The notes beneath the pieces were generated by a model that saw only the letters and a program-made list of their open reading frames with translations, had not been told where the DNA came from and did no database searches. Below, in pieces: positions 4,919 through 8,203 of a stretch of 13,822 bases of DNA. Both the position numbers and the translations under genes were made by a program. Origin of the DNA: a virus; UHGV virus genome UHGV-0097017; one strand, 5' to 3'. Positions within the stretch are counted from its first letter, which is position 1. Every line of letters begins with the position of its first letter.

Positions 4919-6463
4919 ATGACCACTATAACCAAAGAGCGACTGCTGACAATCAAGCAGTGGCGCGAAACATACGGACCGGGTAGCAACGTTGTACTGC
5001 CAGCAGAAGAAGCGGAAGAACTGGCACGGATTGCACTGGCATCATTGGAAGCAGATCCAGTTAAACGAGTTAACTCAGATCAGATGCACCGAGTCTGCTT
5101 AGAAGCTAATCGCTATTTAGATAAATATGACGCGATGGCGAAAGAGGTAAATAAGTTGCTTGGACGCATCGCCCCGCCAGCGCCAGTATTTAACGGCGAA
5201 TACGGTGACGCATATCAGGGCGCTCGTGAAGACCTGTCCATCTGGAAACGGCGAGCGCTTGAAGCTGATGAGCACGTTCGGCGACTGGAGCAAATCAATG
5301 ACCACATGGTGAAAGAGGCGCAGGGAGAATCACGCATGGGCGAGCCTGTAATACGTGAGCCAGCACCGGTAGTGCCTGAAGAAGCAACTCCGGAAAACGT
5401 AGAAATGCTCTCTGGCTATGTTTCAACGTACAAATTAACCGATAGCGAGCGCGATATTGCTGCCGAAATATGGAACGCCTGCCGCGCCGCCATGCTTCAG
5501 TCCGGAAACTTTCGGGAAAACAAGAATTCGTCAACCAATAATTTTCGGGAAATCGCGGAAACGTCAACCAACTATCCGGCAATTCCTAGTGAGGTGTTGT
5601 CCGCAATCCTGAAGGTTGCCAGGATTCGTGCCGATTTCGATGATTTTGACGGTGACAGGCGAGGTATCGGTGATTGTCTGGATGAGGCCGAGCAAGAGCT
5701 TATCGTTACCATTAACAAATATGCCAGTCAGTTGGCAGCAGAACCGATAGCGACTAATGACGTTCGAGAGCAAACAGCCGTTCCGCCAATACAGGCTGAT
5801 GTCGCGCAAGCAATTGAAAATCTCAAGCAGAAGTTAGTGGAATGCAATCGCTATAACTACTGCGCAGATGCAGTGAAGAACGTAGAGGATGCCTGCCGTG
5901 CTGTTAGCTATAGCCAAGCCGACAATCAGCCAGCATCTGGCAACCAGGCTGCCGAATCCAATCGCGGTAATGAGTGGACTGGCAATCCTGATATTGATAA
6001 CGCCATCATCATGCTCGACCGCATAGATACGCTGGAAAATTGCGATGATGACCGTATTGAGGCTGTTAAGGCTGTTTTGCGTAGACTGGCAGGCAACTAT
6101 CCGGATATTCCGGATAGTTCGGTGCCAGCACCAGGAAAGGGCGTCACCGGTGAACGTATCCGAATTAAGCCGCATGTTTATCGCGAACTGGTTAACCGTC
6201 TCCACGATACAGCGATCAAGTGTGCTGGCACCCAGCAATTACGAGAAAGAATTAGCCGTGTTTTGGGCGACGTTATTACACCAGATCATCATAAACAAGC
6301 CGAGAAAAGTGGCCTGGAAAGGTGTCACCTTGAGGCGGCATTAAACATTAAGCCGGGGCATACGCTTGGCATTATTGATGCACTATTGGTTCATAAGATG
6401 GCCAGGGCTTTATTGCCGCTGGTGGCTGAAAAGCATGAGGCGGACCATGCCAACGAAAGCTGA
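4919..6463 (+). CDS. Large acidic hypothetical phage protein (514 aa)
   Basis: Strong Shine-Dalgarno TAAGGAG 6 nt before ATG 4919; long uninterrupted ORF. Contains an internal ~33-bp imperfect tandem repeat (NFRENKNSSTN / NFREIAETSTN). Confidence 0.75.
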   Translation: MTTITKERLLTIKQWRETYGPGSNVVLPAEEAEELARIALASLEADPVKRVNSDQMHRVCLEANRYLDKYDAMAKEVNKLLGRIAPPAPVFNGEYGDAYQGAREDLSIWKRRALEADEHVRRLEQINDHMVKEAQGESRMGEPVIREPAPVVPEEATPENVEMLSGYVSTYKLTDSERDIAAEIWNACRAAMLQSGNFRENKNSSTNNFREIAETSTNYPAIPSEVLSAILKVARIRADFDDFDGDRRGIGDCLDEAEQELIVTINKYASQLAAEPIATNDVREQTAVPPIQADVAQAIENLKQKLVECNRYNYCADAVKNVEDACRAVSYSQADNQPASGNQAAESNRGNEWTGNPDIDNAIIMLDRIDTLENCDDDRIEAVKAVLRRLAGNYPDIPDSSVPAPGKGVTGERIRIKPHVYRELVNRLHDTAIKCAGTQQLRERISRVLGDVITPDHHKQAEKSGLERCHLEAALNIKPGHTLGIIDALLVHKMARALLPLVAEKHEADHANES

Positions 6464-6731
6464 ATTACAGGTGCGCGTAGATGAGCTTGAAAAAGAGAAC
6501 GCGAGCCTCAAAAAAATGCTGTCGCGGGCGGAAAGGGAATTATCAGGCAAATTATTGCCAGAAGAACTGCCACCAGCAGATATACCTGATCGAGTGTCCT
6601 GGTGGATGAAGTATTTCCGTGCACCGTGGGAGGCGTTTTGGTGCTACGACCATCGCAGATGGTGTGATGAACTTGATAGCAGTTTTCCCTACTTTGCGGA
6701 AGGGAACACCTGCCCTCAATGCAGGGGATAG
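6447..6731 (+). CDS. Hypothetical coiled-coil protein with C-terminal CPQC motif (~94 aa)
   Basis: ATG 6447 is preferred over the ORF-track start at 6366 because it limits overlap with the 514-aa gene to 17 nt. N-terminal ELQVRVDELEKENASLKKML heptad-like segment. Confidence 0.5.
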   Translation: MPTKAELQVRVDELEKENASLKKMLSRAERELSGKLLPEELPPADIPDRVSWWMKYFRAPWEAFWCYDHRRWCDELDSSFPYFAEGNTCPQCRG

Positions 6732-7192
6732 CATTTGACGAAATCGATCACCCTATCCTGAACTTCAGAAAGAAGGTCTTTTTCACGCGCCAGGACGTCA
6801 GGATATTGACGTTCTGGCCTTATCAGATGCCGGAGCTTCCCATTAAGCAGAATGGCCTCAGAAAACACTTTTACGCTGTGCTTTATCCCCTCTGTTTCAC
6901 TTTTCAGCGTCAAAATAAAGCGCAATTGCTTATTAGCCTGATTCGGATTCAATACACGAATTTGCAGTTCGTCTATGCTGTTTCGCAATGGGATTGATGC
7001 CACCACACTGGTGCAGTCTCTGATTGTCTGAATTGAACGGCTAACATTGAGAACGTTATTGTGCATGTGCCTGATCCACTAACTCCTGGAGGTTTCTTGT
7101 GTCAGATCGAAATATAGCAGCTAAAAGCCAGGAAGAGCGAGACAAGGTGAACGTAGACCTTGCCGCCAGCGGCGTTGCTTACAAACCCCGCT

Positions 7193-7222
7193 TTCACAAA
7201 CTATGCCTTTTCAATGTATACT
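7193..7222 (+). promoter_or_regulatory. Putative sigma70 promoter of the humD-like gene
   Basis: TTCACA (7193-7198), 18-nt spacer, TATACT (7217-7222); the -10 element overlaps the LexA box. Confidence 0.45.
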
Positions 7223-7238
7223 GTGTGAATAAACAGTA
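7219..7238 (+). promoter_or_regulatory. LexA (SOS) operator
   Basis: TACTGTGTGAATAAACAGTA fits the E. coli SOS box consensus TACTGT-N8-ACAGTA with both CTGT/ACAG arms intact; it sits 18 bp upstream of the humD-like start. Confidence 0.8.
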
Positions 7239-7256
7239 TCATTAAGGTAAAACGCT

Positions 7257-7646
7257 ATGGGCTTCCCTTCTCCTGCGGCGGATTATGTTGAAAGCCGTAT
7301 TTCTCTTGATCAGCAACTAATCAGACATCCTTCAGCGACCTACTTCATGCGGGCGGCAGACAGCCATCACCGTGAGGGAATATTGCAAGGTGCTTTGCTG
7401 GTGGTTGATTCCTCACTTACTCCGGTTGATGGCTCACTGCTTATATGCGCTATGGAGGGAGAATATCGCGTAAAAAGATACCGGAAGTATCCGCGCCAGC
7501 ACCTGGAGGATTTAAGCACCGGGAAGAAAGAGGCGTTACCAGTAGATGACGATGGTTACACGGGTAGTAATGCTGTTTTTGGTGTGATCACCCACATTAT
7601 CAATGACGCCAGGGGCGGTGAATTTGATGATAGTCCTGCTATATGA
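7257..7646 (+). CDS. humD: UmuD'-like S24 peptidase-fold protein (HumD-like), lacking the N-terminal arm
   Basis: Translation starts directly at the GFPSPAADYVE motif that follows the cleavage site in UmuD. Retains the Ser-containing ADSH segment, the LLVVD segment and the Lys-containing GEYRVKRY segment. 129 aa, the size recalled for phage P1 HumD. Confidence 0.85.
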   Translation: MGFPSPAADYVESRISLDQQLIRHPSATYFMRAADSHHREGILQGALLVVDSSLTPVDGSLLICAMEGEYRVKRYRKYPRQHLEDLSTGKKEALPVDDDGYTGSNAVFGVITHIINDARGGEFDDSPAI

Positions 7647-7780: not shown

Positions 7781-8203
7781 ATGAGTTCGTCTGCTTTTGT
7801 CACTGTTGTCACTGGAGTAAGCGTTTTTGTCCTAGGTCGACTCATCATCAAGGGGGTTGAGTCTTACATTTCATTCAAGGAACAGTTGGGGGAAATATCG
7901 CATCTGTTATTGTCTAACCAAGCAAAGCTATCGAATCCCCGCTCTGACTTAAAACAAGAAATCATCCATGATTTGAAAGATGCGGCAGCACAGTTACGGG
8001 TGAAGTACGAACTATTACCTTTCTATATCAAAATGTTACACATCGGTTTTCGCCTTGTTCCATCAGAAACTGAAATTCGTAAAGCGGCGCAAGAATTGAA
8101 TCTGATAGCCTCGATACATGATGGTAAAACCGGAGAGCTGCCATATGAGCACATAGCCAAGATTGGATTACTGCTCAGAATTCCAACCACTTATTCTGCT
8201 TAA
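7781..8203 (+). CDS. Hypothetical single-pass membrane protein (140 aa), low-GC moron-like gene
   Basis: N-terminal hydrophobic helix AFVTVVTGVSVFVLGRLII followed by a charged helical domain. A consensus TATAAT lies at 7756-7761. GC is visibly lower than the flanking humD and phd-doc genes. Confidence 0.6.
   Translation: MSSSAFVTVVTGVSVFVLGRLIIKGVESYISFKEQLGEISHLLLSNQAKLSNPRSDLKQEIIHDLKDAAAQLRVKYELLPFYIKMLHIGFRLVPSETEIRKAAQELNLIASIHDGKTGELPYEHIAKIGLLLRIPTTYSA

Follow-up and report, generated by a model that had tools for sequence, protein, structure and literature searches.

This locus raises the question of how a short reading frame that opens like hot, a homologue of the small, epsilon-binding DNA polymerase III subunit theta, comes to close in the regulatory DNA of humD, and whether anything can still be expected of its product. 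The window, by which we mean the whole 13,822-nucleotide stretch of UHGV virus genome UHGV-0097017 that was analyzed, does carry such a frame on its + strand, as an earlier sequence-only reading had stated (7099 to 7245, encoding 48 amino acids); it is called hot' here. The features to which the text refers are listed below by window coordinates, strand, and content.

6716-7066, − strand, divergent neighbor of 116 amino acids (phrog_2594), with 32 bp between its start and that of hot'
7088-7092, + strand, Shine-Dalgarno-like motif GGAGG, 6 nt ahead of the GTG and kept in RCS47 and CP104667
7099-7245, + strand, hot' remnant open reading frame (ORF) of 48 codons, from GTG to a TAA stop at 7243-7245
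7099-7185, + strand, hot-derived segment, codons 1 to 29, its protein identical to residues 1 to 29 of the Hot proteins of RCS47 and CP104667 (alignment and translations)
7180-7185, no strand, deletion junction with the single remaining TACAAA, a hexamer found at both ends of the block in intact relatives
7186-7245, + strand, non-Hot tail of 19 codons plus stop, humD regulatory DNA in translation
7193-7222, + strand, humD promoter-like site, TTCACA (7193-7198), an 18-nt spacer, and TATACT (7217-7222), with 10 of 12 consensus matches
7219-7238, no strand, LexA box TACTGTGTGAATAAACAGTA, overlapping the −10 element; the sole CTGT-N8-ACAG site of the window
7257-7646, + strand, humD, intact, UmuD'-like, S24 peptidase family (Pfam Peptidase_S24, E value of 9e-9), annotated in D6, P1, and RCS47

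Theta homology of hot' and the humD signals at its end

The hot' product, MSDRNIAAKSQEERDKVNVDLAASGVAYKPRFHKLCLFNVYCVNKQYH, was compared with family profiles and solved structures. It belongs to the theta/Hot profile PF06440 (DNA_pol3_theta) in Pfam, with an E value of 8.1e-11 and 42 bits against a curated cut-off of 34.6; the match spans only profile positions 3 to 31 of 70, and the complete three-helix theta domain of about 70 positions is not present. The solved P1 HOT (1SE7/2IDO) matched with an E value of 1.8e-11, with agreement at 27 of the first 29 residues, and E. coli theta (1DU2) matched with an E value of 3e-6 over residues 4 to 34. In PHROGs, the 48-amino-acid profile phrog_27764 matched hot' from end to end (E value of 2.4e-39). 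The similarity to HolE/Hot proposed from the letters is therefore significant in both the Pfam and the solved-structure searches. It had been placed at about 27 N-terminal residues followed by divergence; the divergence was borne out, but identity with full-length Hot continues to residue 29.

Residues 30 to 48 are encoded by the humD −35 element, spacer, −10 element, and LexA operator. The frame had been described as ending inside the LexA box. It instead crosses the whole box (7219 to 7238) and stops 5 nt past it, on the humD ribosome-binding site (AAGG motif) and 11 nt ahead of the humD ATG at 7257.

The humD promoter-like site is identical in relatives with an intact hot, and P1 records annotate a LexA binding site for lxr and humD at the homologous position. 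A palindrome overlapping a sigma-70 −10 element marks this as a putative LexA-regulated promoter. Because the promoter, LexA box, ribosome-binding site, and coding sequence are all intact, humD should be under normal SOS control, as far as sequence can indicate.

Two positions set the window apart from D6, RCS47, CP104667, and CP066033. Position 7225, within the LexA box, is G in the window and A in the others (TACTGTGTGAAT versus TACTGTATGAAT; the A form of the box is TACTGTATGAATAAACAGTA, for comparison with TACTGTGTGAATAAACAGTA), and position 7244 gives a TAA stop in the window versus TGA in the others. No exact match to window positions 7196 to 7262 was found among 195 PLSDB records (0 of 195 at 100%). 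The G at 7225 departs from the usual TACTGTAT half-site, and LexA repression of humD might be weaker as predicted from this change.

The deletion junction and its parental forms

Alignment to related phage-plasmids had been proposed as the way to define the endpoints of a deletion. In RCS47, the same upstream neighbor is followed by an 83-amino-acid hot, a 123-bp spacer, and humD; CP104667 has this order plus a 116-amino-acid ORF on the + strand between hot and humD. A four-way alignment of the window, D6, RCS47, and CP104667 was collinear and nearly identical, with one block absent from the window and D6, and both breakpoints could be placed by reference to RCS47 and CP104667. The left breakpoint lies at hot codons 28 to 30, between ...GGCGTTGCT and TACAAAGAACG, and the right one lies 13 bp ahead of the humD −35 element, between ...GGCGCGC(C/G) and TACAAACCCCGC. 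The locus is thus a deletion scar that fuses the 5' part of hot to the SOS-regulated humD promoter, as the sequence-only reading had supposed.

The absent block measures 217 bp against RCS47 and 569 bp against CP104667, which are also the spacings of the two TACAAA copies in these relatives, where the hexamer sits in an imperfect repeat of about 20 nt starting with CCAGCG. A repeat at both parental ends and one copy in the window is the signature of short-homology deletion.

The identity of the lost DNA was also considered. The earlier reading had pointed to an lxr gene at that position in P1, between hot and humD. This holds for P1, but RCS47 and CP104667 have either nothing or the 116-amino-acid ORF at that place, and lxr, judging from these alignments, is not the material deleted here. 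P1 was rejected as a reference for the lost DNA, as the DNA on its lxr side shows no relationship to window sequence upstream of about 7204. A 569-bp loss would also have taken a 116-amino-acid ORF of the CP104667 type. RCS47 is the nearest match to the left flank (99.5%), and D6 (99.1%) and CP104667 (98.5%) are nearest to the right flank, where RCS47 reaches 92%. These identities mildly favor a CP104667-type parent, although mosaicism prevents a firm choice between 217 and 569 bp; what was lost would be the 3' part of hot and possibly the phrog_2594 ORF of 116 amino acids.

Very probably, then, hot' is an inactive remnant of hot left by a short-repeat deletion beside an intact humD promoter. 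In a D6-type ancestor, illegitimate recombination at short homology or replication slippage would have joined two TACAAA copies, one at hot codons 28 and 29 and the other 13 bp upstream of the humD −35 element, presumably in a single event. Hot codons 30 to 83 and all DNA as far as the humD promoter would have been removed, amounting to 217 bp from an RCS47-like parent or to 569 bp, including the 116-amino-acid phrog_2594 gene, from a CP104667-like one. The frame would then have run for 19 codons through the humD −35 element, −10 element, and LexA operator to a chance stop.

The surroundings of the junction vary among P1-like elements. Phage-plasmid D6 and a set of ~90-kb plasmids of E. coli and Salmonella share the region at 98.8% identity. 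Taken whole, the window is mosaic, and no PLSDB record matches it exactly (best record, 84% coverage at 98% identity). Variation is seen in the slot just upstream of the humD promoter (window positions ~7067 to 7190), with the promoter, LexA box, and humD conserved. The slot holds lxr (− strand) in P1, hot in RCS47, and hot plus the 116-amino-acid ORF in CP104667; in CP117014, the closest overall relative of the window, the arrangement is different, with a toprim-domain ORF and P1-type intergenic DNA. The 116-amino-acid ORF in the deleted block of CP104667 (L004 2161-2511, + strand) likewise belongs to phrog_2594 and is 33% identical to the ORF at 6716-7066, such that two distant, inverted paralogues flank hot in CP104667, of which the window keeps one.

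Differences were also noted at both sides of the locus. Between humD and phd, the window has a 140-amino-acid ORF (7781-8203, + strand; phrog_7512) with no Pfam match, which occurs in D6-type plasmids and CP104667 and is absent from P1 and RCS47, where phd follows humD almost directly. Upstream, D6 is without 10 bp (CGGAAAGGGA) at window positions 6529 to 6538, within the ORF at 6447-6731 (+ strand, phrog_3797); the window and CP066033 have them. The phrog_3797 locus is annotated as a 50-amino-acid ORF in D6 versus 94 amino acids in CP066033, and with the same query the closest D6-type plasmids match over a span 10 bp shorter than CP066033-type plasmids. Since the window keeps 6529 to 6538, it shares the D6 deletion in hot and not the 10-bp lesion of D6.

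Consequences for Hot and for humD expression

A structural model of full-length Hot was generated with AlphaFold2 and placed helices at residues 11 to 31, 38 to 44, and 47 to 66 (mean pLDDT of 83.8). The model of the 48-residue product reached a pLDDT of 62.3 and a pTM of 0.28, with no residue at 90 or above, and in the predicted fold hot' keeps only helix 1 of the three. As only this helix is left, the product is most likely unfolded and functionless. Shorter than its functional homologues and with a new tail drawn from non-coding DNA, the frame has the features of a pseudogene. Among 27 aligned full-length homologues, the part missing from hot' contains invariant E30, R31, N33, V36, E39, V41, R43, Q45, E47, R50, R56, and R61.

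Translation is nonetheless possible, since the GTG start and a good GGAGG motif are kept and no disabling mutation is seen in the 29 Hot codons. A simple sequence scan of the + strand upstream of hot' found no sigma-70-like promoter. The P1 late promoter LPhot was not found there either, the region being non-homologous with no matching −22 element nearby, and Rfam and tRNA scans of the window gave no matches.

Theta stabilizes epsilon, the proofreading subunit of DNA polymerase III (review, PMC11253446), and an expressed 48-residue micro-protein might dock helix 1 on epsilon, partly stabilizing it or competing with host theta, and so alter fidelity. The intact GTG and GGAGG would allow its synthesis, the most conserved theta motif (DKVNVDLAASGVAYK) is kept, and 26 plasmids maintain the allele stably. 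Against this, helices 2 and 3, the core of the three-helix fold, are gone, the product is modeled at low confidence, no promoter was found upstream in the sequence scans, and the NCBI pipeline PGAP calls the locus a pseudogene. The tail, moreover, is translated promoter and operator DNA and varies with the operator (V or M at residue 43, V or A at residue 40). We consider such a micro-protein decidedly unlikely.

The deletion could also have been selected because it rewired humD, with upstream transcripts entering humD and ribosomes re-initiating there, to give HumD outside the SOS response. The overlap of the hot' stop (7243-7245) with the AAGG motif ahead of the humD ATG would suit re-initiation, and no terminator-like site was found between hot' and humD. 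The intervals between hot and humD in RCS47 and CP104667, however, are equally without a terminator-like site, and the intergenic RNA of RCS47 folds no better than shuffled sequence (z of −0.14); the deletion thus removed no recognizable regulatory barrier. With no promoter identified upstream, and with operator-bound LexA still expected to lie in the way of transcription, selection for rewiring is very unlikely.

In broader terms, there is a small chance that the remnant is not inert, whether through a helix-1 peptide that titrates or modulates epsilon or through a hot'-humD transcription and translation unit producing some HumD, a mimic of UmuD', without SOS induction. If so, plasmids of the D6 clade would mildly alter the mutation rate of their hosts. 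No result of the analysis speaks for a peptide that touches epsilon or for read-through into humD. Persistence of the allele in at least 26 plasmids from two host genera means that it does no harm at the least, and it may even confer a benefit.

An inactive remnant of hot accords better with the standing of the gene itself. In a CRISPRi map of P1, hot, lxr, and humD are all non-essential (PMC10695390). Among public assemblies, other truncated or frameshifted Hot variants were found, namely, P0010 (62 amino acids, 16 contigs), P0072 (43 amino acids, 5 contigs), and P0005 (38 amino acids), with tails that differ from that of hot'. These separate variants suggest that hot decays repeatedly in P1-like elements, and together with its non-essentiality in P1 they fit a dispensable, decaying gene.

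Distribution of the junction and comparison with known systems

A search of a collection of 5.8 billion proteins returned 263 significant matches to Hot. Among the best 120 of the 263, nearly all complete proteins had 79 to 84 residues, and only one 90% cluster (P0001, 48 amino acids, 19 members) had the C-terminus of hot'. The possibility that Hot homologues of this lineage are naturally about 48 residues long, raised beforehand as one that would undo the deletion, was not upheld; nor was the second such condition, a HolE similarity short of significance.

The junction was then traced in public records. A 56-mer search identified it in 26 PLSDB plasmids (15 from E. coli and 11 from Salmonella); an initial count of 9 plasmids obtained with a 40-mer was an undercount, as a synonymous GGC>GGT change at 7173 broke the 28-base seed. 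This change is the sole difference noted among carriers in the 29 Hot codons. The junction was also present in 11 of 5,426 complete E. coli genomes, plasmid-borne every time, and in phage D6. By comparison, the deleted 3' part of hot was found in 341 PLSDB plasmids, 18 of which have the arrangement of hot plus the 116-amino-acid ORF. Occurrence in 26 independently assembled plasmids and D6 establishes the junction as an inherited allele of a clade, not an artifact. Two plasmids of Salmonella sp. Sa1423 (NZ_MK356558 and NZ_MK356557) have the same junction in a region that is about 90% identical and rich in small indels, which has the appearance of long-read error left uncorrected, not of genuine divergence.

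The tblastn search that had been suggested for an intact hot elsewhere in the element recovered none in the window or in D6. Queried with full-length Hot, P1 Hot, and HolE, the window matched at 7099 to 7197 only, the C-terminal half of Hot gave nothing better than an E value of 0.47 in the window, and the 91-kb D6 genome yielded a single Hot match, to residues 1 to 33.

That this lineage naturally has a 48-residue Hot, or that the short form is an assembly or sequencing artifact, is extremely unlikely and was rejected: GenBank and RefSeq records of D6 call it a theta subunit without comment and PHROGs has a 48-amino-acid family, but the tail shares no homology with Hot and aligns collinearly with humD promoter DNA in intact relatives, a single protein cluster has this form among the best 120 of 263 matches, and the same junction recurs in the 26 independently assembled plasmids and D6.

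The truncation of hot is itself already known and on public record, in RefSeq PGAP annotation and as phrog_27764 in PHROGs. PGAP describes the locus in D6-like plasmids as a pseudogene, 'DNA polymerase III subunit theta; incomplete; partial in the middle of a contig; missing C-terminus', whereas the D6 phage records label the 48-residue product 'DNA polymerase III theta subunit' with the truncation unmentioned. The paper on pYU39_89, a D6-like Salmonella plasmid, reported that no pseudogenes were identified (PMC6799933); this plasmid (NZ_CP011430) has the identical junction at 5757-5812. Added here are the exact endpoints, the 6-bp microhomology, the distribution of the allele, and the absence of a second copy. 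As ordinary gene decay the event is of little consequence, and it offers a clear, datable case of accessory-gene loss in a phage-plasmid by deletion at a 6-bp repeat, in which the D6 clade lost Hot and kept SOS-controlled humD. The practical value lies in the annotation of D6-type records, and the junction sequence could serve to mark the D6-type phage-plasmid clade in E. coli and Salmonella.

In comparison with known systems, hot' has in common with E. coli HolE (1DU2, 2AE9) the motif DKVNVDLAA-GVA-K; HolE is a chromosomal protein of 76 amino acids, whereas hot' corresponds to an N-terminal third only and lies on a phage-plasmid. Relative to the Hot of P1 (YP_006567; 1SE7, 2IDO) and the 83-residue Hot of RCS47 and many P1-like plasmids, hot' is without residues 30 to 83, which include helices 2 and 3 of the model and are replaced by 19 unrelated residues. 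Neither the P1 late promoter LPhot nor the DNA upstream of it is conserved in this lineage. The divergent lxr-humD SOS unit of P1 is shared in part: its LexA box and humD have homologues here (91% identity to P1 over window positions 7204 to 7636), whereas the window has no lxr and, upstream of about 7204, bears no relation to P1 DNA on the lxr side. With RCS47, hot' shares not only the first 29 residues of Hot but also the start codon, ribosome-binding site, and upstream neighbor. The hot' of phage D6 (orf107, YP_009914784) and the PGAP pseudogene I6I16_RS26010 of NZ_CP066033 have the same locus, junction, and length as the frame described here, with D6 differing in residue 43 (M in D6, V in the window) and in its stop codon (TGA in D6, TAA in the window).
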